Notes under the pieces: model-generated
Seen by the model: only the letters and a program-made list of their open reading frames with translations
Told to the model about the DNA's origin: nothing
Database searches by the model: none
NCBI GenBank assembly: GCA_008632985.1
Contig: QPGO01000249.1
Location: forward strand, 59,476 to 79,475
Direction of reading: 5' to 3'
DNA: 20,000 bases
Source: Psammoneis japonica
Taxonomy: Eukaryota
Made by a program: the position numbers and the translations under genes
Shown: positions 807 through 19,932 of the stretch, piece by piece
Layout: each line of letters starts with the position of its first letter
Numbering within the stretch: the first letter of the stretch is position 1

Positions 807-963
807 TAATACACACCTACTTATATGAATATACGATAAAATTTTGATCTGTCGTCACCCATCGTGCGTTGGCGCGCCCTCGCTTCTCGCCCGTAACGGC
901 AATGCGCAATGCGCAACGGCATTTTCAGAATACCTAAAAAAATTGAAAGAGCAAACACGGACC

Positions 964-2541
964 ATGGTAGTGGGTCCTTCTTGCGCCAAGACCGGCAATG
1001 CCTTCAAGTGTATCTATTCAACAGCACTGCTGATCCTTGCGGTTTCAGTCACTCTGGCTACAATCTTTGATGAGAATACGCAGCTTTCCAGGGACGTACA
1101 TCCAGTATTCGCCTTTGTCATGATTTGGCTCGCCGTCCTTTGGCTTTCCATGGTAGAAGGTGGACAAGCCCCTTTGGTTGGATTGCCACCAGTTGACAAG
1201 GAACTTTACAGGAAGAGCCATCCTATTACGCACACGTGCGCGTCGGTGGCTCATAAGGGCGACAACTTGGACCGATATTTGATTGGTAGACAGTTCCTGG
1301 TGATTTTGATTGTCTTTTTGACCAACTTGGCTGGCCGTCCTCTCCAAGTTGCACAAGTTCTGGGACTTCCCGACGTGATTCTACAAATATTCTTGGGATC
1401 CGGATTGGCCATGACATTGATGACGGCCAATATTGGGCAACTGGCCTCTCAAGTGAACGCGTCCCGATGCATGCTGGACTATATCAACACCTATTTCATG
1501 GTTTTTACTCTTTACGTGGCAATGGCCATTGAAGCTTCTGGTTTGTTGCATTCTGTCTACTTTGTGCAAATGTGCTTTGCTAAGCTTTCCGGCAAGAAAT
1601 TCAAGTCCAAAGAACCACCCCGAGGAGACTTTCAAAACATGTTCTTTTTCGGACGAATATATTTTTCCTTGGCCGTGCTGGGCTTTTGCTTTGCAGTCAC
1701 CCTCAAGGCTATCATTGATGGAAAAACAACCATGCGGGACGGCGTCCCCAAGGCTGTCTTGGTTGTTTTATTTTTTGTCCTCATGTCAATAGTTGGTATG
1801 TTAGAGGGTATGCAGATTGCATTCTTTGCTGTCGCCAAGCTCTCCAAGGACGAGCAGCACCAACATCCAGTGGCCATGAAGACATGCGACTTGTTGTTCA
1901 AGGGTGAAGGACGAAATTTGCCGGGATTTATGATTGGACGACAAATCTGCGTCACAATGTGTTTCTTATTTATTGCTCGAATTACCACAATCAATGTGGA
2001 CGTGGATGCTGGTGAAGAGACGATATTCGGTGTATCCGCAGGCTTGCAGCAATTCTTCAACACCGGACTCCCAGGAGCTATCATTACAACCATTGTGGCA
2101 TCACTATCATGGCAGCTGGTAGCTTCCTCTTTTCCTGTAGCCTTTTTGTCCAATCCCTTGGTCTACGTCCTTCTTCGAATTTGCCTCGCTCTCGACGCCA
2201 CCGGCATTTGCTCAGCCTCACGGGTCCTTGCCTGGATGCACAAGCGTCTGGTTGGCTTTCAAAAGGATGAAGTGTACATTGGGACACCGGGAGAACGAGC
2301 CGCCGCGAACCATCAAGATGACGAACAAGCACTGGATGTCAATCCGGGACATTTTTTCCCAGGAGTACCAACCTTGCCCAGATCCGTCACAAGGTACCAA
2401 GGGTATATAATTATCACCCTTGACAAGGTACCCACGGAACAATCGCAGCTGGCTGTCCGTCTTGATGAAGATCTATTTCCTATTTCCGACACAAGACGAG
2501 CACAGCACTATAATGCAACTGGTTCTACCGAACGTACCTAA
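964..2541 (+). CDS. SIT: Diatom silicon (silicic acid) transporter, SIT family
   Basis: Four GXQ motifs (EGGQ, GRQ, EGMQ, GRQ), the CMLD motif, KGDNLDRYLIGRQF, GQLASQVNA and multiple hydrophobic TM segments. The first in-frame ATG is at 964; the ORF-track start at 844 is a TTG. Confidence 0.95.
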   Translation: MVVGPSCAKTGNAFKCIYSTALLILAVSVTLATIFDENTQLSRDVHPVFAFVMIWLAVLWLSMVEGGQAPLVGLPPVDKELYRKSHPITHTCASVAHKGDNLDRYLIGRQFLVILIVFLTNLAGRPLQVAQVLGLPDVILQIFLGSGLAMTLMTANIGQLASQVNASRCMLDYINTYFMVFTLYVAMAIEASGLLHSVYFVQMCFAKLSGKKFKSKEPPRGDFQNMFFFGRIYFSLAVLGFCFAVTLKAIIDGKTTMRDGVPKAVLVVLFFVLMSIVGMLEGMQIAFFAVAKLSKDEQHQHPVAMKTCDLLFKGEGRNLPGFMIGRQICVTMCFLFIARITTINVDVDAGEETIFGVSAGLQQFFNTGLPGAIITTIVASLSWQLVASSFPVAFLSNPLVYVLLRICLALDATGICSASRVLAWMHKRLVGFQKDEVYIGTPGERAAANHQDDEQALDVNPGHFFPGVPTLPRSVTRYQGYIIITLDKVPTEQSQLAVRLDEDLFPISDTRRAQHYNATGSTERT

Positions 2542-3015: not shown

Positions 3016-4092
3016 CTACAAATCGTCTTCTTCTTCTTCTTCGTCTTCTTCCTTCAGCCACTTAAAGAATCTCCCCAAGGCGCGAAGGGGCAATCCAATT
3101 GCACTAGTCATGACGCTAAAGTTCCACATTACATGTGATCCCACCGAGGCTGCAAACCCAACATCCTCAAAGACCGGCGTAAAGACACGAATCGAAACGA
3201 TAAATGCCGCATAACATTGGGCTACGGCAGCAGAAGCCACAGTCAAGGCCTTGACAACGCTCTCGGCATCCGTCACGATGGACGCCTCGAGAGGACGTAT
3301 CCAATTGATCAAATGAGCAAAACCAAACACTAAACTCGATAGAACTGCCCAGAGTGATAAATCTTGTCGCTTTTCTTGGAGTGAGGAGCGATAGGTTGAA
3401 CTTGGCCTTCGCTGTACAACCTTCTTAATCGCATTCATGATGCCTTTCCGAAAGATTAATTCCTCCACAATGGGTGCAATGAACAAGACTTGGAAGAAAT
3501 AAATAAAGGACTGGAAGAAAGAAGTATCGCCCATTATACTCCTCCCTCCCGTGATCATAAGGCTGCCTCCCGATAGACCAACAGAACCTGGTAGCGGCAG
3601 GAAAGACACCGGCTTGTACATCAACATACCCATCGAGGCGAGAGATTCGGTCACTCGATCCACAACGTTGATTCCGAGTTCAGGAGAGAATGCGTAGGTA
3701 ACAGCAAATATGCCGGCACACATTAGCACGCCCAGAGCTGCTCGTCCGTAAATGCTCCAAAACAGATCCCAGAAGAAATGATTCACTACTCCTGCACCCG
3801 TCATGAAATCCTCCATGGCACTTCCCATTCCTCCTTCTCCACTGTCTTCGATTTCACTTAGCTGAGAAGCTCCAATCCTAGGAAAAGAGGCGATGGTATG
3901 CCTCTTGAACCCTGCTCTCGACTGGGGAACCGATCTTTGCATACCGGAAGGACTGACGACAAGTCGACCACTGCTCAATAACCCCAGCGATGGTTGAGTC
4001 GAAAAACCGTGAATCTTTTGACTCTGATGAAACAGAAAGAGGACGATCCAACAAAGTGTGACTGACACTCTTCCGGACGGGACTGCCACCAT
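3016..4092 (-). CDS. CPBP family (Rce1/Abi, CAAX protease type II-like) intramembrane metalloprotease with a probable bipartite plastid-targeting presequence
   Basis: Motifs APIVEELIFR (EExxxR), SSLVFGFAHL (FxxxH) and SHVMWNF (HxxxN). ATG at 4092. A hydrophobic signal ends in IHG-F and is followed by a Ser/Arg-rich transit-like stretch. Acidic C-terminal tail. Confidence 0.85.
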   Translation of the reverse strand: MVAVPSGRVSVTLCWIVLFLFHQSQKIHGFSTQPSLGLLSSGRLVVSPSGMQRSVPQSRAGFKRHTIASFPRIGASQLSEIEDSGEGGMGSAMEDFMTGAGVVNHFFWDLFWSIYGRAALGVLMCAGIFAVTYAFSPELGINVVDRVTESLASMGMLMYKPVSFLPLPGSVGLSGGSLMITGGRSIMGDTSFFQSFIYFFQVLFIAPIVEELIFRKGIMNAIKKVVQRRPSSTYRSSLQEKRQDLSLWAVLSSLVFGFAHLINWIRPLEASIVTDAESVVKALTVASAAVAQCYAAFIVSIRVFTPVFEDVGFAASVGSHVMWNFSVMTSAIGLPLRALGRFFKWLKEEDEEEEEDDL

Positions 4093-4251
4093 GGTTAGAC
4101 ACACAAAAAACGAAGTCACGATGCTTGGTGTCGATCTTGGCTTCGGTTCGATTAGCGAGGTGTGATGTTTGATGTGCGTTGATGTCGGTGGATACGGTAC
4201 GGCGTCGGACGCACAATCGCGATCACGCGATCCTCATCGCCAACGGATGAC

Positions 4252-4318
4252 TGACGTAGGCCAGAATCGAGAAAAGAATACGTCAGCGTATGGCATTTCT
4301 ACGGTAAGTGCCACGTCA
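4252..4318. promoter_or_regulatory. Cluster of three TGACGT/ACGTCA (CRE-like, bZIP-type) elements upstream of the CPBP gene
   Basis: TGACGT at 4252-4257, ACGTCA at 4280-4285 and ACGTCA at 4313-4318, lying 160-226 bp upstream of the ATG at 4092. Confidence 0.45.
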
Positions 4319-6299
4319 GCACTGGGAAAAATGAAAAATGAGTGGCGCTTTTTTGTGGATGATTTCGAGATTTTTTTTCGAGATTTCCGGTGTTTTTGAG
4401 GAAATCATGCAGCATTTTGTCGGAGGTGCTCCAAAGCTTGCTTCAGAAAAGTTCAGTGAGAACCCCCTTGGAAAATTGAGGCGATTTCATCATTTTTTGT
4501 CCTGGTGCCACTTGAGGGGTGCAGAGGAGCTCTCAGAAGCGTGTGAGAGACTGATGGCGTGGTGCATGCAAAAAGAGCACTCAAGCAGCTCTTGCAGCAC
4601 TGCAGTCTCTGGCAAGCTGTTCCCCCTGTGGCTTGACACTTCTGCAAGTGTGTGGCTGGGTTTTCAAAAGCTCAGAAGAAAAGTGTGCTCTTGCCCCTCC
4701 TCTCCTCTCTCACCATGTGTTTGAGAGGCACAACAAACAATGTTGACAGCAGCAGAGCTTTGCTGGCTTTCTCAGCTGTGAAACCATTTTTGAGGCTTGT
4801 CATTCAGCACAGGGTTTTTTTGTTGGCTGGCATGAAAGTTAAAAAGACCAAAAAGAGGCACGCACTGCTGCCCTCGTCACCCTCTGCATGTGGTGTGTGC
4901 ACTGTGTGCTGCTCAGCAACAAGGTGCTCATCTGGAATGCCAACAATCTGGGTCTGATCCCCGCCATCAAGGGTGTGTTTGATTTGCAGCCAGAAATTTT
5001 CTCTGTTCAATCCAAGACAATGCAGCCTTGACAAATCTGCACTCATGAACATTTGACAACAAAATGTCTCCATTCGTGCAGCCAACAATTTCTCTGCTGC
5101 GTGAGTGAGAGTGCAATGTTGTTTGTGTTCATGGCATTGCCCGAATGAAGTGCACCCCACTTTTCTGGATCCAAAACTCTTCAGTCATGCACCAAGTTGG
5201 ATTTTTCTTTCCTCCAAAATTTTTGCTCTCTGATGTTGCCATCCTTCTTTGTTTTGTTGCAAGAACACCTCAGCACTGCTCTTCTTCATTTGCTTTCAGC
5301 TTGTGAGCTTGCTTCATGCTGATTGCTTGCTGTGCTGGGGCTGGGGGATTGATGTTTGCATTGGGTGCACTCTTTTCAGTTTGTTGTTGTGCTCACATTT
5401 GTCTGTCATGCTTCATTGGTGATGCAGTCAGATGGTCTTGTGTGCCCTCATTGCAAATGGTCTTGGTTTGGTTCTGAGTGTGGTCTTCATCATCATCTTG
5501 CCACTGACTGTGTGTCATTTCCCTTGGTCCAACCAAGTCTTTTAGTTGTCCACATTGTGGACAGTGCAGTTTTGAGAATTAGAAAATCAGGCAGAGCATT
5601 GCCTTTCACATTGCTGTGCCACTTCCGCTGTTCTTCCTTCTCCTGGAACACAGCAGCACTCAAGAACTGACACATCCTGCCTGTTTGGTCAGACAAATTT
5701 GGTTGCTTCACTTTCTTGGGATGCTGCTGTCTCTGTTGCCTCTGTTGGGTCCACCCCCAACTGACCAAAATGTTCTTGTTGCCAAGCTCCTTTTTCAAAC
5801 AATGCCTGGCATCTCCAGAAGCATGCACCCTGCAGTGAAAGGGAGGATGCTTCCATGTGTGATGCTCTGCTGCTGTCACGTCCACTTCCATTGCTGCAAT
5901 TTCCCCTCCAGATGATGACACAGCTGGTGATTCACCAGGACTGGCAGGAGGCAATCTTGCCCTTTGTTGGGATTTTGACATTCCTCTGGTGCACTCATGC
6001 TGAAGCGCCGCACCCATGGCTTGCCTGTTGCACCTTTGTTGATGGCCTGGTGTTGTGATCAACTTCATCAAAACAAAGTGGTGAGAACAGCTCACAAAGA
6101 GCATGCCAAAAAGCAACTTGATTTGACAAAGCCTCCCACTGCAGCTGATGTGGCAATGAAGCAACTTCTGGAGCTGTTTCCCAACACCCTTTTTCCCTGC
6201 ACTGCAACTGTGATGCTCAAGCACAACAATCCAATCCATCAACAGAAGAACGGCCCCAAATGCCATCATTCCCCACCTTTCCCAGTTTTCAATTTCACA

Positions 6300-7560
6300 C
6301 CAAGACTCTGCAGGATCTCTTCACACAGAGCCCATTTTTCATGATCTTTCAAAGTTGCTGGCAAACCCAAATGACGTTTGGCCACCACATGTTCTTCCTC
6401 CCAGGGACAGTGATTTAGATTCTGATGCACCCCCTGGTGGTGGCAACAATTGATTCCCAAATTGTCCTGATGACTGGCAATTGTTGACTCAAAGTCAAGA
6501 TGCAGGAGATGGACAGTGGCTCCAAAGTTGTTTGAATGCTCAGGAAACTGTGCCCGACGTTCATGTTCACCTTTTTAATTGTTCTAACAAGACTGGCATT
6601 GATGCAGTCAATCCACATGGGATGGAGCCCCCCATGCACTCACTTGCCTTGATTCAAGAAGGTGCTCATTGGGATCACCATTGTTGCTGGCATCCTCTCC
6701 AGTTCATTCTAAATGTGGACAAGCAAGACAAAAAGGACAATTCTGGGTGTGCCTTGTCATTGACGATTGCTGCAGCATTCTGAAGTTGGGGCTTCATGGA
6801 CTGCTTTGTTGCCTGGGGACAATCCACCCATTGCCCACTCAATCATTGGAGCTGAGTGCCTGCATGTGAGAGCCAAAACACATCGCAACTCCCTGTTGGG
6901 TGACATCCTCAATCAAGAGCAAATGTTTGTTGCAGAGTCATGAGCTGAAACAAGATGGAGCAATTGTTGCACAATTGCCATGTGCCCTCATGCCTTGTGG
7001 ATGATCCTCTTCATGCTTGCAAGTTTTTCAACCAAGCTTTCATCAAGTCACTCACTGTTTCCATGCCCGGTCCTGATCCCAACAATGACAACAGCCACTG
7101 GCATCAGTTTTTGAAACAAGCACCATGCCATGACAGCCCAAAAGAAGGCAGAAAACAAGCTTTCTGCTTCCCTCCATTGGCAAATGAAAATGTGTTCCAA
7201 AATGCCAAGGCAAGCATTTGGTCAGCATGCTGTTGACAATGCCCACTTTCCCAATGATGTTGGTGATGACTGTCTCTGACATGATGCACATGAGACAGAG
7301 GCAGGCATCATCCCTCAAATCATGATGAAGGCAACAACTGGAGAAATGCACAACAAACACAAAGAGTTGTGTGACCGGACAACCTTGGAATTGTTCTGCA
7401 CAGCTTGGCATTGTCAAGTTATCAGAGGCTTGGCTGTCCACACTTGTGAGTGAATGGCGGTCTTTCCATCCTTGGCCAACTCACCAGTGATGAGAAGATG
7501 GGCAGGGTGATTGCCATGAAAGACAGTTGGCAAGGTTGGGTTTGGAAAAAGAAACCTTGG
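6300..7560 (+). pseudogene. Plavaka-type (CACTA/EnSpm-related) transposase relic with TGA stops and frameshifts
   Basis: Ordered motifs: NPNDVWPP, GDGQW, LFN(C/Y)SNKTGID...GMEPPM.SLALI (DKT..D...EP-like, ~6586-6650), LLGDILNQEQM, C.V....DDP...C, VDNA(H/Y)F..D.G, DMMH/EAGII (7278-7312) and GLSILGQLTSDEKMG (~7460-7503). This order matches my recollection of Plavaka transposases; not searched. Confidence 0.65.
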
Positions 7561-7859
7561 TGGGTGCAGCAGGTCCCACCTTTGTTTTTGATGCCAGGAC
7601 ATTGCACCTTGCCTTGTCAAATAAAACAGAGTCAGATTGGAAGAACGCCGCATCTCTGATCCACAAAATTTTGAGCCAGTCTCCATGCAGCATGTTGTGG
7701 CTGGGATTGAGAGTGTGAATGCCGGTGTCATCACTTGGCAGTCATCATGTTCAGCAGTGATTTGATGACAGTTGCAATGTGCCACAGGAGACATCAAACA
7801 ATGTAGAAGGCATGTTTTGCATTTAAAGGATTTTGGCTGCAAAGGACACAAACAGTCAA

Positions 7860-8530
7860 TTCATGTGAAGCAAGAATTTGCAGAATTTGCACCAAATTGC
7901 AGCAACAACATTTGCCAGCTGAGGTTGAGAACCACCACACACCTCACCACAACTCACATTTGACTTGCTTGACATTTTCATTTGTTGTGGAGTGCCTTGG
8001 CTCAACAATGCCATCTCTTCTTTTTGTGTGCTTGTGAAGAAGATGTTTGTCAACCCCACCACACCACAACCACAAAACATCCTTCTGCCAGACACCAATT
8101 TGTCAAGATCTCCTCCAGCCAAACAATTTTGTGTTGTGTTGTTGTCGAACAGCATCCATCCATTGCAGTTGTCAAAAAACATCTTGGTGTTGATCTCACA
8201 ATGCAAGCCATGTGCAGCATCATGTTCATCAAGGAAGGGCTGGCTGATCAAAGTTGGACTCATGCCAGGTGTGTCAGGACAGATGCCAGCACACCAAACA
8301 CTGCCCAACTTGTGATCACGACAGTGCAGCTCAATGCTGCATGCCCAGCACAGGTGGCAACAAGCTGATGAGAAGCAACTGCAGAAATTGCCACAACCAC
8401 TGCCGGCATCAATGAGCATCATGTTGCTGGACCAAGTGGCACAAACAGGGTGGGGCGGCAAATGACCTCAGCAGCAAAGTCAAAATTTGCCATGCCTCCA
8501 TGTGACTCTGTGCACCACCAGCAGCAATGC
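7860..8530 (-). pseudogene. DOT1-like class I SAM-dependent (histone H3K79-type) methyltransferase relic, frameshifted near 8460
   Basis: TES(H/Y)GGMANFDFAAEVI (from 8511 downward) resembles DOT1L EVYGETSFDLVAQMI. After the frameshift come LIDAGSG(C/Y)GNF (motif I, cf. FVDLGSGVG), A(C/Y)SIEL (cf. YGVE) and KMFFDN(C/Y)N (cf. VIFVNNF). Confidence 0.6.
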
Positions 8531-9269
8531 AACCAAATTGATGTTTTCCTTCTGGGCATGTGATGGCAGCACAGGGAACACATGTTCAGGTGGCTGCAAT
8601 GGTTCATTGCAACAATGTCAACACAACACCAGCACCAGCTTCAAAGAGAATTTGCAATTTTGTGGCCAAGCGGATTGGCGAATGTGTGCAGATGCACATT
8701 TTTTCAATGATTGCAGTGTTCTCTTTGGACAATGCTCATGCCAGTTGGAGATGGAAGCATTGCATTTGTTTTGCCAATGAGATTGTGGCATGTTGGAAAC
8801 AGAAGGACATCAGAAAAGATGAGGAAACAAACAATTTGGTTGTGGGTGAAACTTTGTCTTGCAGGCCACAAAATTTGCAATGTGACAAAATGCACACATT
8901 TGCATGTTTGAGTTTCTCACAGTGGAGCACATTTCAGAACAGTGGAAGGATTGGAAAAGTTCAAATGTCAGGTGAGAAGCATGTTCACAAAATTGGTGCA
9001 GAGCCCTGTTTGAATGAATCTGTGAGACAAGCCAACAATGGCAATGTGGAGAAGATCACTTGCAAAGTGTGCTCATTTTGTGACTTGTCTTGTTGCAAAC
9101 CAGCAGGGATGATGCAAATGAACAAACACAAGTGCAGCCAATTGGAGCAGAAAAGCAGATGGAGGAAACAGTTCTTGTGGGAGTGACAGCACAAGATGGC
9201 AGGAGTGTGGCATCAAGTGGCAAGCCATGAAGAGGAAGGCTCAACAGATTGAGACACTGTCACTGACAT

Positions 9270-10270
9270 GTCTGAGTTGGCCTCTTTGGCATGCTTGACA
9301 GTGACCATGAGTCCTGTGCTTGTGGGCTTGTTGAGTGTGCAAATGAACAAACACAGGGAGTCGAGCCAGGTCCTCCAGTTCACAACGAGTGGCTCAAGTT
9401 CTGTTGTCACTCCTGCAGAGGGATTTCATGCAGTGGACAATGCTCCAGCAGTTGGCAAAAAACTGGTTGGGTGCATGTTGACAAAGGTTGTCAACAAATG
9501 TGTGTCAAGGAGGGCAGCACATGAAAATGGCACTGCAGGAGTTGAGAAGCATGGTGTCAGTGCTGGAAGCATTCTGGAATGGTGCATGCAAAGAGAAAAA
9601 AACTCAGCAGGAAGAGGAACAACACACAGGACAATGTCAGGAGCAGGATGACAGGTGAGCCACATGAATTCTGGCATGCAATGGTTGGTTGCTTGGACTG
9701 TCTGACAGATTGAGTGTGGATGCCATTGTTTGCATCTGTGCAGTTTTTGCTTTGGAGGGTTTGCTGGTGGAGTGCAAAGATTTGATCAAGGGATGAAGGG
9801 CTGACAAAGACACCTGTGCATGGTTCTTGGAAAATGCAGCAATGGCGGTGGTGGGCCAGGCACAGTTTGGCAGAAGCATGACTGACTTGCTCAAGGAGTG
9901 GCTGACCCCATCATCTGAGACCTTTGCCATTCTGGTGCACTGGAACTTCTGTGACAAGGTGGTTGGGTGGCAGGGCAGAAAAATTGGAGAAGGACAACAA
10001 CATTGCAAGGTGCAGAAAGCTGAAGGCAGAAGATGCGACAGATGATGCAAAGCACACTGCACAGGGAAGGGGGAAATCAGCAAAGTGGAGCCAAGGATGG
10101 AGCAAGGAGGGGATCCAGAAACACACAATGAGCTTTGCAAATGGGTGGAACAAGGCAGAGAGAACAACCAAGGTTTTTGAGTGTGGCTCAAGGAATGAAG
10201 GCAAGAGAAGGCTGGCTTGTCAAAGGAGGCCAGAAAGAAATGAAAGAGAAATGAGAAAAGGAAAGAGAGA
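9270..10270 (+). pseudogene. Decayed ORF of an uncharacterised, probably TE-associated protein family
   Basis: WLTPSSETFAILV(H/Y)WNF(C/Y)DK (~9899-9958), then in another frame AK(H/Y)T...GWSKEGIQK(H/Y) (~10047-10124), followed by a purine-rich charged tail. The pattern resembles TxSxEAF..N..D / KYT / GWSxEGI hypothetical proteins I recall from diatom repeats. Confidence 0.45.
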
Positions 10271-10821
10271 GAGAGGATGGGTGGGATGTGCACATGGGAG
10301 AGGAACTGCCCTTGCAGCCAATGGCTGCTGGCAATGGCACAGAAGGAGTTGCAGCAATGGTGACAAACCAAGCTGGGGGTGTGTGAACACAAATTGCAGC
10401 AAAGGACAACATCAACAACACAATGAAAACAACAAGGTGGCATGTGGTGCAATTTTTTGTCAAGAACAAATGACTGTTTAGAGAGTTGCTTTTAAAGCAA
10501 CAGTGCAAGAAAAAAAGTGTAGAAGGATGTTTCAAGCAGCAATGCTGGATTGCATGTGGCAAGAGATGCAATGAAGGAGTGACAAAATGCAAATGTTAAA
10601 AAGGGCTGACTTTGACATCACAGGCAAAAATGCCCATCGTGCAAAGTGGGTGCAATTTGGAATCAAGGAGCCTGTGAACTTCAACAGCTCTGATCTGACA
10701 TTAAAAGGAAGACCTGGCTCAACAAGAAACAACAATCTGGGGGTTGCAGTCAGGAAATGCCCAGATTCTGACAGGCTGTCAGACCCAGATTGTTGGCATC
10801 CCAGATGCTTGCCTTGCCACT

Positions 10822-12120
10822 CAGCCAATGAGAGGCAGTGATTGCCTTGTTGGGGCCAGCCAAAGCCAAGCAACATTTGGCCAACCCCACACAAGAATCT
10901 GTTTGCTTTCAGATTGCAGAGAGATTGTGAGCTCTTGTGCCAGCATGGTCTGCTGCAGTGTGCAGAAAACATGAGTGCATGATTGTGCTGTGTGCACCCT
11001 GCCTCCAACCTGTGCACATGGTGCGCCACTCTTTGTGACATGTCAAGAGGCAAGAGGCAAGAAGGTTGCATGTTGCAACATCAGCACTGGTGTCTTTTCC
11101 CAGTTTTGTCATGCACCGCCCCCATGGAGAGGACAGCACTGCCCTGCAGATGGCTTGCTGTTGATGATGGGGGCAATGACAGATGATGGGCTGCAGAAGC
11201 AGCCACAGCAGAGCACAGCCATGTGTCTTGTTGAAAAGTGGCAGGCCAGAACAGAAATGGACAGGGCCAGCCCAACAACTTCCATCCAAAGCTGCAGTGC
11301 CAGAAACTTTCACAAATGAATTCATGTGCTCACACTCAGACACCTCTCAGACCATGGTCTGTTCATCAGCCAGTTGGAGGATTCCCAAATTTGGGGGTGC
11401 CACAAACAACACCATGGGTGTCTTTGTTCTTGTTTTTTTTTTCAGCTGTGGAGACATTTTTGAGGCTGGGGCGCAAGGTTTTGCAGATGGCACAAAAGCT
11501 GCCAAGAGCAAAACAAGGTGTTTGCTGTTGCCCTTGTCACCCTCCATGTGTGGCTGTGCACTCCTGCTCAGGGCAACAAAATGCCCGCCACCTCGTCCTC
11601 AGCAGCAGCAGCACACACACAGCTGCTGGTGGGCTGCACACACCATCATGATGCCCTCACGCAGCCAATGAAAGGCAGTGATTGCTTCATTGGGTCCAGC
11701 CAAAGCCAAGCAATGTTCTGCCAACCCCACACACAAAAAATGTTTTGCTGAAAGATTGTTGTTGCAGCCAGAGATGGCAAGCTCTTCTGCCAGCATGCTG
11801 ACCCGCCACGGTTTGTAGAAAATGAGTGCATCATCACAGTGTGCCCTTCAAGCTGTGCACATGGTGCACCACTCTTTGTGGTGTGCTGGTCAAGAGGCAA
11901 GAAGATTGCAAATCACAACATCAGCACTGGGGCCCTCTTTTCCCAGCTTCTTTGTCATGGCTGGCTGCAGACCATGGCGCTTGCTGTTCAGGAGGAGGAG
12001 GAGGAGCAATGGCACAGAGGGCAGCCACATGTCTCATTGAAAAGTGGTGGGCCAGAAAAACACAGACAGGGCCAACCCAACAACTTCCAACAAATCTGCA
12101 GTGCCAAAAACTTGCAAACG
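10822..12120 (+). repeat. Two diverged direct repeats of ~460-500 bp (copy 1 ~10822-11318, copy 2 ~11662-12120)
   Basis: Shared colinear blocks: CAGCCAATGA.AGGCAGTGATTGC, CCAGCCAAAGCCAAGCAA, CCAACCCCACACA, TGTGCACATGGTGC.CCACTCTTTGTG, CAAGAGGCAAGAAG.TTGCA, CAACATCAGCACTGG, TTGAAAAGTGG, ACAGGGCCA.CCCAACAACTTCCA and CTGCAGTGCCA.AAACTT. The offset is ~840 bp at the start. Confidence 0.9.
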
Positions 12121-13011
12121 CTGTGTGTGCAGGCCTTTGTGCCTTGTCCTCCCCTGGGCAGCAAGAAAAGAAGGAAGGAGACCAAGAAAAATGCTCCAGC
12201 AAAATCAACAGAAACATCTGACGGGCATTTTTTGACTTGTGGGCCACAACTTTGCACCTCAATCACAGATGCACAATGGTGCCACACCTCTGGAGAGGGG
12301 CCTTCAAAGTGTGCAAGGGGGGGACGAGCTTCTGTGTGGACAGAGCACGGTGCTCTGCACCATGCTCTGCACAGCAGCTGCCAGACAGATGGCTGGGAAA
12401 GTGGCTGTCTGTCATTTTTGAAGGATTCTCACTGCTCTGATAACCAGGTCATTGCAATTGCATTTGCTGCAGTGATTGCAATTGTTGATTGCAGTCCATT
12501 CTCGTCTCCGCGCAGAGAGCAATCGCATCAGGACCGGGCAATTGCCAATGATGTTCTCCCTCCAACCTTCAACAGGCCGTTTTGCGGAATCCGCTCGCAC
12601 GCGATAGTGCTGTTCAAATGCCTTTTAGAATCAATGTACATGTGTATCTTTATTATATTACTCTAAACTATGTATAAATATTTATATGTCCGTTTATCCG
12701 TTGCGCCAAACGTGCGTCCAGTGGTCGTACAGAATGTACTGCAACCTGCCGTGTGACAGAGAGAGCCTCTGCACCTCAACATCCACACTCCAAACTCCAA
12801 ACCCAAACATCAGAGACTCCTCATCGTATCGCGAATCACGACAAACAACCTACCGTGTATCGCAACAAATCACCGTCGTCGAAAGCCATTGCACTGATCC
12901 TTCACTTTCCAGAGCTCTTGACCTACGACTTTATATAGCGATAGATCTCATTTTTTCATTGGTCCTATCGATACCGTGCCAAGATAGAGTTTCAGGGCCG
13001 ATTGAAACGCA

Positions 13012-15129
13012 ATGGCAAGCACTGTCTCGAGCAGCGTGAATTGGGCCGACGACGATGAGCAAAGGCGACCTCAAGGGAATCATAATGAGTATTATGATGT
13101 GGAGTCGGTTGCATCAGGAGAAACTTCATCTCCGTTTACTCCTGTCTCTCGACAGTTGGCATCGTATTACCATTCATATGCCCATTCACACGCCCATTCA
13201 CAGTTTCATTTTCCTGAAGAACATTGGTCGGCTGCCGATGCAAGGCCAATACTGCCAATAGCTGCTTTTTTTATGGGCGATTTGAGGGATGGTATTCCCA
13301 TGGTACGAGATTTCTAGCCGTTTACAACTTTTGTTGGCTATACATGAAGAATCATCCTCTCACACATTGCTCGTTGTTTCTGTACATAGTTGAATATGCA
13401 AGCTGCGTTCTTGATCTCGGCAAAAGATTTCTCGCAGAAGCAGGTGGGCATTCTTTTTCTTGTTTTCGGCATTTCTCAGTTTGTCTGCCTGGCTCCTGCT
13501 GGGTATTTTCTAGATTATACGCGAGATAAAATCAAGTGGGTTAACTTTGCAGGGATTGCCTGCGCCGCTCTGACGGTCTTTACGGTCATGACGGCTGCGG
13601 ATGACGGACGAAACATGGGACTCATGATATTTTGGAAAGTACTGCAAGGATCGGTCACCGCCCTCTTTCCAACTGGTTTCAATGGTGTAACACTGGGTAT
13701 TGTTGGGAGCACTGGATTCTCCAAGCAAGTGTCAAGAAATCGCGTCATGACACACATTGGCACGGCGCTGGTGGTCGCCTGTGGTTCGATACTCGCGTAT
13801 TTGCTCTATCCAAATATCGGAGTCCTATTTGTTGTCAGTCCACTTTTTGCGCTTTTCTTTGTCCATCACATGAGACGAATAAGACCCACAGATGTAAACC
13901 CAGAGGCGGCGAGTGCACTCATCGTGGAATCGCCAACCATGACGGAATACGAGTGCATGGATGATATTGACGAGCACGAAGACATTTGGGGCATCACAAG
14001 TGACCTGAGCATCGATTCAATGTCAACTACTGGTGACTCCTCACGGAAAAAGGAGCAGATCAGACCAGCTCCTTACGCACCGCCAGACGTAGTGGGCGTT
14101 CGCACTGAAAAATCCGCCTCGGAACTGTCACCAAAGGCAGATCCTAGCAGACCAAATGAAATACCAAACCCCACACATCTCGGGCGACAACAAACGGCGT
14201 CATCCACTGCCACACCGTCTAGTGATGCATCACAGTCTGCTGGAACGTGGAGTGTACCAAGTTTTAACTTTGGCTGGGGGCAGCGGAAAAGGCCTCCACC
14301 CGCCCCGTCTTGTCGGGCTGCTGACACGGCAATGGCAGATTTGAAGTCACGACGCCCGCACACTCCTCTCTCCGTCTTGGTAGATCCTATACTGTTGGTG
14401 TTTATCATCATTGTCTTTTCTTTCAATGTGGCAAATGGTTCCGTACTGCCTCTGGTGATGCAATCTCTCAAGGTTAAGGATGCGCAGACATCGATTTTGC
14501 TTTCCGGTCTGTGTATCCTTATTGCACAGGGTCCCATGGCATACTTTGCAAGACTTTGCGGTGATTTTTCGCCGGAATGGGGACGGAAGAAAATTACTCT
14601 TTGGGGCCTATTTGCTTTGACGGTTCGCTGTTTCCTACTTGCCTTTTTGTCATGGACAAAGAACAATTTAGTCCAAACTCTGTCGGGCCTATACGTGATT
14701 AAATCTTGCATTCTTGCGACGCAATTGCTGGATTCCATGGGCGCCGGTATCTTTGGGACCATGTACATTTTGGTCACGAGCGATATTTCTAGTGGAACAG
14801 GTCGTTTCTCACTCCTGCTGGGAATGACAACAAGTGCAATGTGCTTGGGGGGGACAGTGTCTGGGTATATTGGACAATCCCTGGCTCAAGATTATGGGTA
14901 CACTGAAGCTTTCTTCTGCCTTGGCGTCATGTCCTTGGCACCCTTTCTTATGTTTGCCGCGTTTATGCCGGAAACGCTTCCGCAGTACGCTAAAGCATTC
15001 ACACCCAAGCCAAAAGCTAGCAAAAACACGCCCAAGTATAGAGGAGAACAGGCTCAGGATGTTGTGTCTTCTGCTTCTCAAAGATTGGGCGGGAGGGATT
15101 CGGGGACGGCAATAATGGAGCTTGTCTAG
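13012..15129 (+). CDS. Major facilitator superfamily (MFS) transporter, 2 exons (13012-13302, 13390-15129), ~676 aa, with a long central hydrophilic loop
   Basis: Phase-0 GT-AG intron at 13303-13389 (GTACGA...CATAG) joins FFMGDLRDGIPM to LNMQAAFL. Motif PAGYFLDYTRDK. Two sets of hydrophobic TM helices are separated by a Ser/Pro-rich loop. Confidence 0.9.
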
Positions 15130-15571: not shown

Positions 15572-18450
15572 CTAGCTGCTCTGTGCTGATTGAATTATAC
15601 GAAAGAGATGTGGACCATTCTTCCCTACTAGCCTCATCCTATCAAGTAGCGATTTAAGACCTAAATCAATAAATACAGTCAACTTAAATATAGGCTCAAC
15701 TTCCGAAACAGACCCCAATTGACTGCTTCCTTCTCTAAGATTACCACCTGCTTCTTCTCCTAACCACAAAACGAAGAAGGCTCGCCGTACTTTTTGTGAA
15801 GGGGGCTCATACATTTTCTTGACCCACTCGACAGATCAATAGGTCAGGCTGTACTCATACAACCCAAATCGACCCGAGCAACGACAATATTGCTGATTTA
15901 AGTGTGAAACAGAGTACTTCTGTTTGTGTCTTCGTCTTCGTCATCTTGCTGGACATGGCTCCGAGAATGTAAATTCGAATGTGTCGTACGCCATTGATAT
16001 CTCATCGGAGAGCATCTCCAAAACTACAGGTTTGCAATGAAGCTGAAACCTGTACTCCAACCCGTTGGCTTCGAACCAGTACCTGAAACTCTTGACCTTA
16101 TTTTTATCACTATTTTGATGTCGTGACCTCTTTTCCAGATCATTTCTTTGCCATCAGGGACTGTTCCGATTCGTAGTGTCCTGTTTCCGCCAATAAAGAA
16201 ACCCTTTTCGTCCGGAACAAGTGCCTCGTGTGGTCGTACAGCTTTGTTCTTGATATCCCCTCCGGAAATGCTGTCGCTAGACCGTAGAAGAATGTTCTCG
16301 ATCAACTGCCATGCTTCAGAGAAAGATAGGACGCGTTCCATAAGAACAATCTTGTACCCCATCTCTTCGAGCTGTCGATGCACGTGATCGATGCGCCTTT
16401 CAAAGTGCACTCGCATTCGTTCATCTTTGTACATCCGCGAACCTTGCAATGAGTGTGAGTGTGCATTTGTCTTTTTCGAAATGAGAGCTTGTTCTACTGT
16501 AGCCCACCTCCACATCCACTGAGCCTGAACGTGCTCTGGCATTGCCTCTAGCTCCTCGGAAGACCTTGCACGGATTCTAGCGATCAATCAAAATCCTTTA
16601 TCTTTGAGATGAGTTTCAGCAATGCGTCGTGCTGTTCGGGGGTAAGCCGTTCCACATCCAAACGTTGCTTCAGCTCCATGAGCTCGTTTGTAGCCACGAC
16701 ACCTGTGGCGCCAAACGTCGATCGACTGTAACCGAGCCTCCAAAGATGCAATTTGTCTCTCTAGCTCGGGCATTGAAGCCCACTGAGGCAAGTTGCACAA
16801 AGGAACAAGGGCTTCGTACTCCGCTTTGGCGCGCGCAACAGCCAACATTACATCCGGATCTGTCACACCTCTGGCCGCCTCAATAAAGTCTTGCAATCTT
16901 CGTATTTCTCTATTTAGAGCTGCACTTGTTTGGAACTTCTCAGCACAATCCTTTCGAAACTGCTCTTGTCTGCTCTCTTCTTCTTGTCTCTTCTTTTCTT
17001 CTACAAGTCGCATCCTTCGCTCTTCTGCTCTCTGTTCTTCAAGCCGCAAGTGCACCACCTCCTCATCACGATGCCGCCATTGAGTTGCTTCCTGCTCTGG
17101 TTGTTGTCGCTTTGCCTCTTCCTCTCTCCACGATTGCTCTAGTGCCAGCAGCTCTCTTGCAATTTTGCGGATTGTTTTCTGTTGTCAGCACTTGCATTGG
17201 GTTTCTGTGGGGAAGCTCTTGCCACTGGCATGGTGGGAACACCCACAATTCCTTGCCTCTGTGCTTTCAAAATCAAAACCACTTGGGAATGGCCTTTTTG
17301 TTCGGCCATGTCTGGCGCACTCTGTTTGCGAAAGTGGTCAATGCTGTGATGGGCTTTGGCTCCATTGTCCAAAAGAATCTGGGCCACCTCTCCATGTGCC
17401 CATTCTTTGCTGCAGCCATGAGAGGCATCTGCCCTGCTTTGAAGCCTGTGCTCACTTTTGTGCCATGATCCATCAAGATTTTTGTGGCATCCACTTGTCC
17501 TTGTTCACTGGCGTGGCAATGCACAGTTGAGTGTTGAGCCATCACTGTTGACTGCATCCACATGTGTGCGGCATCGTCGAGGAGTCCCGCCAGCATCATT
17601 TTGTCACCCTTGACATTTGCAAAGTCATCATTCTTGCACAACCCGTTCTTGTTTTGCCTCCACTTGCTCTCCTGCAAACAAGAGTCACAAATGAAAAAAG
17701 TTGCACGAGAAACACTCGTTTTCATTTTTGTGAGTTGCAAAATCACACTGGCGTTTTGGTGGCAAAACTGAAAAAAGCAACACATGGTCAATTTTGGCAG
17801 AGGCACAGTGGATTTTGAGTCTCGTTCTTGTTTTGCTGTTCGCCAATGCCTGAATTTCACTTCTCAAATTGTTGGAAATGCCTGTGTTGCCATCCAAGTC
17901 CAATCACTTCAAACTCTCATTGTGTCATTGCAGCATTTGCAGCAACTCTCTTGCACCATCATCACCACCAGTTTGAGCCCATCCAATGCAGTGTTGGTTT
18001 CAAGTGCTGATGCAAGCGTTGTTGCGCTGTCATCACCAAATTGGTTGTTGCAAAGACCCAGCTGTTGCAAAGCAGTGTTCATTTCAAGTGCCCTCACAAG
18101 CACTTTTGTGCCATTGTCACCAATTTGGTTGTTGCCAAGATGGAGCTTTTGCAATGTTGTGTTGGTTTTGAGTGCCCTTGCAAGCACTCTTGCGCCACAG
18201 CCACCAATTTTGCTGTTGCCAAGATGCAGCTCTTTTAACATGGTGTTTGTTTTGAGTGCTGTTGCGAGCACTCTTCTTGTGCTGTTATTGTCACCAATTT
18301 GGTTGTTGCAAAGATGGAGCTTCTGCAATGTCGTGTTGGTTTCGAGTGCCGATGCAAGCTTTTTTGCATCAGCATCACCAACCCGGGCTCTGTTCAAGAT
18401 GGAGCACTGCCAATGTCAGGTCATTTCACCGCAGATGCCAGCAGGCCTCG
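15572..18450 (-). pseudogene. Disrupted multidomain gene: RNI-like LRRs (17909-18397), ankyrin repeats (~17270-17530), coiled coil (~16591-17184) and an unknown C-terminal region
   Basis: LRR units such as LKTNTTLQKLHLGNNQIGD; ankyrin motifs PLMAAAKNGH and A...GHSQVVLIL. ORFs 16588..17058 and 16024..16587 share one frame separated by a single TGA. Further in-frame TGAs occur at 17187-17185, 15943-15941 (inside an Arg run) and 15838-15836, with several frameshifts. Whether all parts formed a single gene is inferred. Confidence 0.65.
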
Positions 18451-18900
18451 TTGAGTTTCACACCACTGCTGCATGATCACAAAATCACATGTGACCCACC
18501 CACGCACAACAAAAAAAAGGGTGCTGAACCACAGTGCACAGAGTGGATCGTGCGCGAGTTGGGTTGCTTTCAACAAAAGCAAAAACGACAGTGAGTCATC
18601 CACCGTGGCTTCGTTCGTGCTTTTCCAAAAAAACTTTGGACTTCGGGTTTCAGATAATTGATGTCATGTTTGACTGTGGACACTCCAGTCATTCACAATG
18701 AAACAGCATGCAGACTGATGCTGTACAGCCAGACGTCCCAAGCAGATTTTTTTCTCGTTTTTTCCCATCGCATCGTGGCATGCCGGCAGGGCATGCTGTG
18801 CCGGAACCGGCAGGCCAGGGCCAATGATGCGGCACGCGCGACGGCGTTTGACACGCAAAGTCGTTCCAATCCAATCGTTCCAGCAGCTTCAGAAAGGCTT
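17145..18900. other. Second TpA/CpG-depleted hypermutated block
   Basis: Only ~4 TA dinucleotides seen between 17142 and 18905 (near 18236, 18286, 18654 and 18724). LRR codons show Y->H, Y->C and T->M changes. Confidence 0.8.
17950..18400 (-). repeat. ~84-bp-period tandem DNA repeats encoding 28-aa LRR units
   Basis: Recurrent + strand strings TCACCAA(A/T)TTGGTTGTTGC near 18033, 18117 and 18291 (a diverged unit near 18202), and GTGTTGGTTT..AGTGC. Confidence 0.85.
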
Positions 18901-19071
18901 GCATGTTAAATGTACCGTAGTGCTGTTTATCACTGGGTAGGTTTGGTTTGCAGAGACTCAAAGTATCAGCATCGGCACTTCATTTCAGTTGCAGAAAGCA
19001 GAAAGTGACGATTTTTCAACTGGTGACGCCGCAGCACTTACTCTCAACCGCTAAAACATAATATACATCCC

Positions 19072-19932
19072 ATGAGCCTTCTTTTGTTCGCGTATTGTGA
19101 TCGATTGGAGAAGAACGATGAACGCATAACAAAACTGAACTTGGCCAATACGTACATTGATGCTTCGAGCGTTGGGGGGTTGGCACGATCGCTCAAAGGC
19201 AACACCGCCCTTTGCGATTTGAACCTTCGTCGAAATACAATTGGTGGCGGAGGAGTACGTGTCTTGGCGAACGCTTTGCCTCATACACGGCTAGCTAGAC
19301 TGGTCTTGTCTCGAAATGAAATTACTGACGAGGATATCAGTCACTTAGCGCAAGTCCTTCAAACGCCGAATTTAATGTTGCGGGTCCTGATCCTTTCATA
19401 CAATCAAATCACATCGGTTGGTGCCATGTCCTTGTCACGATCTCTAAAACAACCGCAGAAGTCGCTTTTGACGAGTTTGGTGTTGAACGGGAATGACATC
19501 GGAGATGAAGGTGCCATTGCCTTGAGCGAGGCGTTGACGACAAACAAGTCGCTGGTTAGCCTTTCACTGCGCAAGAACAACATTACAAATGTGGGCGCTG
19601 TGGCCCTGACTCGGGGATTAGAAGAAAACGAGTCACTGTTGTCGCTGGATTTGTATTTGAATCCAATTCGAAAAACCGAACCGCTGGAAACTACCTTTGA
19701 GCTCATGATGGAGCACAACACTACGCTCCAACACATCTCTCTCTGGAAACAAGTGCCGGCAAAGATTGCCTACTTGCTCATCGGAAACATGGCGGGACGT
19801 AAGCATGTTGGAGACATTTCGTTATCACAAGCATTGTGGCCGCATATTCTGCTACGAACTCTCTTCCTGAAAGGCGAGCAGACCGATCTCATCTATTACT
19901 TGCTTCGAGAAAAGCCAGAAATATTCCAATGA
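19072..19932 (+). CDS. Intact RNI-like (NLRC3/ribonuclease-inhibitor-type) leucine-rich repeat protein
   Basis: 28-aa LRRs (LTSLVLNGNDIGDEGAIALSEAL, LVSLSLRKNNITNVGAVAL). C-terminal N.AGR...LWP.IL...DLIYYLLREKP motif, which I recall as typical of diatom LRR expansions. Normal Tyr and CpG content. Confidence 0.9.
   Translation: MSLLLFAYCDRLEKNDERITKLNLANTYIDASSVGGLARSLKGNTALCDLNLRRNTIGGGGVRVLANALPHTRLARLVLSRNEITDEDISHLAQVLQTPNLMLRVLILSYNQITSVGAMSLSRSLKQPQKSLLTSLVLNGNDIGDEGAIALSEALTTNKSLVSLSLRKNNITNVGAVALTRGLEENESLLSLDLYLNPIRKTEPLETTFELMMEHNTTLQHISLWKQVPAKIAYLLIGNMAGRKHVGDISLSQALWPHILLRTLFLKGEQTDLIYYLLREKPEIFQ

Follow-up and report, generated by a model that had tools for sequence, protein, structure and literature searches.

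Introduction

RIP changes C to T at CpA, which makes TA, and is triggered by duplicates that are more than about 80% identical. AID attacks cytosine in the active genes of B cells; both strands are hit close to the promoter, and the effect declines over kilobases. RIP of ascomycetes is described as reaching genes nearby (PMC2621366, PMC3105345). In the diatom Phaeodactylum tricornutum, methylation of transposons is reported to depend on DNMT5 (Hoguin et al., PMC9998398). The closest described system is the TpA hypermutation of integrated NCLDV and virophage DNA that the main text of a preprint on Bigelowiella natans reports (Mettrop et al., bioRxiv 10.64898/2026.01.13.699255). According to that text, TpA becomes TpG or CpA regionally and on both strands with almost no other change, the rate is about 1000-fold above background, and the process is active in some lines only. 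TpA-poor clusters are rich in transposon domains and contain some host-type Pfams, the candidate enzyme is ADAT2-like, and the choice of the DNA that is hypermutated is left open (10.64898/2026.01.13.699255). Its main text nowhere uses the terms diatom, pseudogene, promoter, gradient or LRR, and the supplementary gene tables may hold host pseudogenes. Searching the literature outside most subscription papers, we found no report of TpA-erasing hypermutation in diatoms.

Here we analyse a 20-kb stretch of diatom DNA (the window; positions 59476-79475 of contig C250 in a 91-Mb assembly), in which an initial annotation had read the codons of an LRR pseudogene as the record of a mutation process. 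The silicon transporter encoded in the window (Table 1) points to a diatom as the most likely source.

Results

A predicted LRR-ankyrin pseudogene lies partly within a depleted tract

Comparison with paralogs indicates that a broken LRR-ankyrin gene lies on the minus strand at about 15900-18461 and has the LRR frame as its 5' exon (Table 1). Intact paralogs, about 70% identical, were found on contigs C164, C310, C217, C145, C27, C16, C5, C250 and C392. The gene runs from the LRR repeats through a cap, an intron-like stretch and an ankyrin exon to a long 3' exon that ends at about 15900. The repeats match LRR_6 at 43 bits (family cut-off 23.4) and include an array at 17984-18359 with a period of 84 bp, or 28 residues. 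The ankyrin exon matches Ank_2 with an E value of 1.7e-4, a match that falls short of the curated cut-off. We infer an intron after the LRR cap; its acceptor reads CAG in the window copy and TAG in several paralogs. The window copy is dead: the paralog start codon has become GTG (18459-18461), eight frameshifts lie near 17969, 17839, 17568, 17538, 17399, 16715, 16559 and 16113, the last three in the 3' part, and about 920 bp near 16500 are absent relative to the C145 paralog. Near 17969 the lesion is a 13-bp deletion in the LRR exon. The 3' exon of the intact C145 paralog is a frame of 695 residues (L045:3777-5864, minus strand), and the window piece that matches it gave no hit in a Pfam search.

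Only five TA remain in 17101-18900. Within the depleted tract the TA-free runs are 17140-18236, 18286-18655 and 18724-18907, and in 200-bp bins the loss of CG is less marked toward the promoter end.

Table 1. Features of the window, with predicted gene parts and base composition
Feature	Position	Strand	Remarks
Silicon transporter	829-2541	+	TA and CG normal
Rce1-like protease	3016-4233	-	TA and CG normal
Second depleted block	4305..12600		about 8 kb; multicopy, 74 matches in genome
MFS transporter	13390-15129	+	TA and CG normal
3' part of pseudogene	15900..17139	-	broken but uneroded; from paralog comparison
TA/CG-depleted tract	17140..18907		spans promoter and first 1.3 kb of pseudogene
Ankyrin exon	17260..17699	-	frameshifted; from paralog alignment; Ank_2
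LRR cap and intron-like stretch	17700..17908	-	from alignment with ten paralog segments
LRR exon	17909..18461	-	about five 28-residue RNI-like repeats; Pfam LRR_6
Pseudogene upstream region	18462..18843		matches paralog upstream DNA to about 18577
Intact LRR gene, head-to-head	18844..19932 (ORF 19072-19932)	+	uneroded

TA and CG were lost from the front of the gene and kept in its rear

To polarise the changes, the front of the pseudogene was aligned with its paralogs. Shared TA sites were defined as alignment columns with TA in at least two paralogs. None of the 19 is kept in the window, which reads CA at nine of them, TG at eight, and AA and TT at one each, whereas as a control the five intact paralogs keep 42 of 87 (P 3.6e-5). 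CG in 17255-17985 numbers 14, compared to 40-58 in the five paralog segments. At conserved sites the front retains 1/19 CG and 0/4 TA, while the rear retains 40/48 CG (18/22 and 22/26) and 21/32 TA (8/10 and 13/22). According to the alignment, the clean readouts of Tyr to Cys and Thr to Met sit in the ankyrin exon and not in the LRR repeats: TGC at 17516-17518 stands where 6/6 paralogs have Tyr, and ATG at 17426-17428 where 6/6 have ACG.

Ordinary pseudogene decay or chance composition is a barely credible source of this pattern. The gene does carry ordinary lesions, and at non-target sites it diverges from the paralog majority at 71 of 527. However, the 3' part is equally broken and still retains TA and CG, and the 731 bp of 17255-17985 contain no TA where five paralog segments have 17-23. 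The uneroded rear, the TA-free front and the loss of all 19 shared TA sites refute both ideas. RNA editing followed by retrotransposition was rejected because both strands, the intron-like stretch and the promoter are all affected. The proposal of the initial annotation that the process also hits a host-type gene, and not only TEs, is borne out by this putatively intron-bearing LRR-ankyrin gene with changes of TA to CA or TG and of CG to TG or CA.

LRR codons record the process poorly

The codons that had been put forward as the readout are all present in the frame at 17909-18415 (minus strand): LHL with CAT in three repeats, LCNN with TGC in two, and ATG in NTML and LEMN. The premise that Tyr is common at the LxL position fails, however, in the 44 repeats from ten intact paralog frames, which have Asp in 11, His in 6 and Tyr in 5. 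In distant TA-normal LRRs (101 repeats from 26 loci) the position holds Tyr in 15 and His in 12. Since His is about as frequent as Tyr in the intact paralogs, the His of the pseudogene is not polarisable. At the Cys position the 44 intact repeats have Gly in 15, Ser in 8, Tyr in 4 and Cys in 2. The His and Cys codons were consequently rejected as a mutation readout. Taking the nearest intact repeat for each pseudogene repeat was uninformative, the neighbours holding TAT, CAT, GAT and others.

The initial annotation had named TA-poor functional homologs with His, Cys or Met already at these positions as evidence that would count against it. Part of that evidence exists: repeats that are TA-poor and have His do occur in the intact paralogs, but Met occurs in 0/44 at those positions. 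As to its reading of Met as former Thr, ACG is itself rare there (5/44 and 1/44). The adjacent intact LRR gene, which had been thought to keep its Tyr codons, has no Tyr at the LxL position in its translation. It belongs to another subfamily (best match 36-43% protein identity), and for both reasons it is no comparator for the codons.

CG counts in the same repeats were informative. Seven CG were observed compared to 25.8 expected from the 44 intact repeats (P 1.3e-5), and hot CG sites were retained at 3/24 compared to 152/220. The lost hot CG sites became TG or CA in 17/21 cases and the lost conserved CG sites of the front in 15/18, and these products match those of 5mC-type decay. TA loss alone was not significant in the LRR repeats (1 observed, 4.4 expected, P 0.066), because the repeats of the intact paralogs are themselves TA-poor, with 1.0 TA per repeat compared to 2.5 in the 101 distant repeats. 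Together, these results show that the predicted spectrum of TA to CA or TG and CG to TG was correct for the gene but is seen on codons other than the LRR ones named, and that LRR codons at variable positions are unsuitable for polarising substitutions.

Similar tracts are found in the window and across a genome sample

The second depleted block of the window (Table 1) is attributed, from its sequence, to the same process as the pseudogene tract. Contigs of sequencing run X1 have CA for TG or TG for CA at window positions 4634-4635 and 5266-5267, among 40/321 difference rows; this would fit one site resolved independently on two haplotypes, or paralogous contigs.

In two arbitrarily chosen 100-kb stretches of the genome, 16 tracts hold 67,650 of the 200,000 bases. 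TA in the tracts is at 0.04 and CA at 1.85 of expected, and the surviving TA are mostly in TTAA and CTAA. Among 673 windows of 400 bp, 30 were depleted in TA only compared to 2 in CG only, in agreement with a loss of TA that precedes that of CG. TA-free tracts lack TAA and TAG and therefore give rise to long false reading frames in annotation. Pfam searches on an unselected sample of 150 of the 353 tract frames left 148 blank and returned one LRR and one weak RTP801 match. The LRR frame (L104:4749-5498, minus strand) is of another class (LRR_8, LRR_14).

We also examined 58 LRR matches, part of 138 in the genome, with 20 loci chosen for stops or short frames. Eleven of the 58, the window pseudogene included, are situated in tracts and contain no more than 7.2 TA per kb; this is not a frequency, because 20 loci were preselected and the 138 matches were sampled in part. 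CG is also lost in seven of the eleven and kept in four. The ten other depleted matches have mixed geometry, and several lie deep in larger tracts. In four of them (L084, L085, L095 and one on L087), and also in the L104 LRR of the unselected sample, the tract begins shortly before the repeats. A second eroded and truncated copy of the pseudogene subfamily (L053:4536-4839; C27 near 237,600) lies inside a 4-kb tract, and there too the third repeat position is ATG and the LxL position CAT.

Erosion is copy-specific and, in one Copia family, runs inward from the 5' end

For higher power on the erosion process, we compared copies of Copia elements. Across the 234 TA compared between C160 and C7, 102 had become CA and 104 TG, 21 were kept and 7 had changed otherwise. 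The lost TA were thus almost all transitions (206/213), compared to 22 other transitions in a 2.3-kb part of the pair, and 198/252 CG were kept. In two strand-resolved Copia pairs, A changed to G in 100/306 TAY contexts compared to 22/178 TAR contexts (P 4e-7). Copia pairs at 95-96% identity differ mainly by TG/CA doublets, 14-40 per pair. Such a doublet is one TA resolved on opposite strands, and TA loss is therefore fast and ahead of CG loss. As recorded in these alignments, TA gives TG and CA about equally often, as A:T becomes G:C by transition on one strand or the other; loss is quickest with a pyrimidine after the A; and CG is untouched at first and changes to TG or CA much later.

Nine full copies of a 6.58-kb Copia element, at 96-99% identity, were compared. 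Five are near intact (L164, L167, L169, L171 and L172) and four are eroded (L160-L161 on C388, L166 on C44, L168 on C244 and L170 on C21). In the four eroded copies the erosion runs from the 5' LTR inward for 2-4 kb and ends at a sharp front: 82/467 TA are kept in the first 3 kb compared to 440/465 in the last 2.4 kb, and CG is kept at 721/769 in the first 3 kb.

The reverse transcriptase by which these copies had been selected is located 3', so we checked for bias by a second DNA search, with 5' and 3' segments of an intact Copia copy. Copies with both segments at 77% or more were taken; the query copy, two 3'-only copies, matches at about 70% and a partial pair on C2 were left out. The 5' segment was the less alike in 21 of 24 copies and tied in 3, and in none was the order reversed; the C2 pair runs opposite by one point (84 compared to 83). 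Thirteen of the 24 differ by at least 4 points between the segments, with TA loss confirmed in the 4 of these 13 that were checked, and even intact copies vary slightly more in the 5' segment than in the 3' one, by 0-2 points. The aligned copies show that TA erosion is copy-specific and, in one Copia family, 5'-polar; polarity was measured in this family and one host gene. The pseudogene, eroded over its promoter and first 1.3 kb, has the same geometry as the eroded Copia copies. The loss of CG as well as TA would mean that its silencing is much older than that of the young Copia copies.

Repeats and copy number do not explain the choice of target

The initial annotation suggested the 84-bp tandem repeats or multicopy status as a possible trigger, which would resemble the targeting of RIP. 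This is improbable, even though the gene belongs to a family with tandem repeats, the intact repeats of its subfamily are TA-poor, and the sole clear Pfam match in the unselected sample of tract frames is another LRR. CG is retained at 4.0-7.2 per unit in intact paralogs that have more 84-bp units than the pseudogene, up to eight, whereas the erosion extends over the non-repetitive intron, ankyrin exon and promoter. Near-identical families are spared, both that of the neighbouring gene at 90-92% identity and five of the nine Copia sisters at 96-99%. Synonymous TA-creating changes in intact paralogs (2/89 and 3/58) are no rarer than other C to T changes (2/84), and this comparison, at low power, gives no sign of an ongoing TA purge in the intact paralogs. 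Collectively, these results largely refute a trigger by repeats or copy number.

The neighbouring gene and possible spreading from upstream DNA

Three copies of the head-to-head LRR gene, one full length and two partial, are 90-92% identical to it and may include haplotype copies. Compared with the full-length one, the gene in the window keeps 33/38 TA and 58/61 CG. Homology common to the copies starts at 18844, near the right edge of the tract, and the window lacks an upstream sequence that three other copies have in common. Between about 18577 and 18843 no paralog match to the upstream DNA was found. DNA searches that skipped common words revealed no transposon remnant at 18462-18843 and no terminal inverted repeats round the pseudogene. 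An X1 contig over 18302-18956 has no differences, and depth there is 31.8 compared to 53.6-62.1 in the unique flanks; as this is about half, the other haplotype may differ from or lack this segment.

Upstream of nine of the ten intact paralogs, within 1.5 kb, there is a depleted tract that ends short of the coding region (L045-L054, L059). Several of these tracts have a 400-bp element in common.

The main rival reading at the pseudogene locus is that erosion leaked in from an upstream transposon tract, which was later removed when the head-to-head gene joined near 18844-18927. A lost neighbouring tract is conceivable because of the nine paralogs with upstream tracts and because the upstream DNA of the window changes near 18844, where the sequence common to the neighbour-gene copies is missing. 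Several of the other depleted LRR matches are found inside larger tracts or at their margins, and two of the four eroded Copia copies (C44 and C244) adjoin upstream tracts. We nevertheless consider spreading rather unlikely. The nine paralogs with upstream tracts keep their CG, and DNA searches that skip common words found no transposon remnant in the upstream region. Among the Copia copies, the one on C16 has a tract adjoining its 3' end (1 TA in a 900-bp flank) and is spared there, with 21/23 TA kept inside, whereas the one on C21 is eroded although its upstream flank is normal, with 35 TA in 900 bp.

A regional mutator and its chemistry

We favour the reading that a regional DNA mutator, acting in cis and on single copies, struck a dead member of the LRR-ankyrin family, and put the probability of this reading at roughly 0.55. 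Judging from the eroded copies, genes and transposons that have been switched off appear to be attacked first at their promoter end and from there inward. A silent-chromatin domain would nucleate at the promoter of such an inactive transcription unit, and an adenine deaminase with a TadA/ADAT-like taste for TAY might work inside it. Cytosine methylation of the same domain would then lead to the slow decay of CG.

The genome has nine PF00383 deaminase matches, a set that looks ordinary. Two of the nine read as TadA/ADAT2-like from motifs alone and are candidates; to our knowledge, such genes are near universal. PF00145 C5-methyltransferase matches number 27, and DNMT5 was not identified among them; those on C10, C27, C43, C59, C78, C297 and C301 include five that are full-length and many that are partial or stop-bearing, some of them clustered. 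As far as these domain matches go, neither family names a culprit.

The same targeting could be combined with another chemistry, such as a modified thymine in RTA context or error-prone gap filling, an alternative that overlaps with the favoured one in everything except the enzyme and that we regard as somewhat doubtful. TA is palindromic, hence TAY on the A strand is RTA on the T strand, and the sequence cannot separate an attacked A from an attacked T; the absence of an unusual deaminase among the nine PF00383 matches points the same way. On the other side, the changes are almost pure transitions, as in the Copia pair above, and AA is not depleted (1.22 compared to 1.19 of expected). Polymerase eta prefers WA, unlike the process here, which leaves AA undepleted. 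As TA is lost while CG stays, the changes do not stem from repair patches started by 5mC deamination.

Discussion

Within the limits of the main text describing the B. natans system, the diatom process works like TpA hypermutation, by analogy of product and strand. Both are A:T to G:C changes restricted to TpA (17/19 in the pseudogene, 206/234 in the Copia pair) and fall on both strands (8 TG and 9 CA in the pseudogene, 104 TG and 102 CA in the Copia pair). Erosion of four of nine Copia sisters is only suggestive as a sign of line-restricted activity. Unlike the viral or foreign target described for B. natans, the target here is a host LRR-ankyrin gene, and retrotransposons too. Further differences from that description are that the host is a diatom, that TA erasure is near complete over about one third of the 200-kb sample, that CG decay follows, and that there is a TAY bias and a 5'-anchored front.

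RIP shares with the diatom process regional, strand-symmetric transitions that ruin transposons and reach host genes. However, TA is destroyed here, as its near absence and the excess of CA in the tracts show. The trigger by duplication also differs, since the 90-92% neighbour family and five of nine Copia sisters are spared, and the closest paralogs of the eroded part are only about 70% alike, unlike the RIP threshold. The diatom process is not RIP. DNMT5 methylation, as described for P. tricornutum, would account for slow decay of CG to TG or CA in silent diatom repeats, but it does not explain the loss of TA, which precedes CG decay. The promoter-proximal zone that fades and affects both strands is shared with AID somatic hypermutation, from which the process differs in its A:T to G:C change, in acting on germ-line DNA and in the apparently silent units it affects.

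What is added here is a polarised host-gene case, the exclusion of a repeat trigger and a 5'-anchored front. A host gene in the eroded state means that foreign DNA is not the only target of the process. Spared and eroded sisters together with the 5' front make the choice of hypermutated DNA directly testable, and the Copia sisters with and without erosion are a ready-made test set for the targeting question. More tentatively, the patterns in these sequences could mean that diatoms have a natural adenine editor of genomic DNA, recruited to the promoter of any silenced transposon or host gene, which would advance 5' to 3' and erase TAY on both strands many times faster than CG decays. A natural A-to-G editor of genomic DNA would, if true, be relevant to mutation biology and base editing; in the diatom it might amount to a directional, copy-specific killing of genes, with the geometry of somatic hypermutation, that prunes an expanding LRR family.
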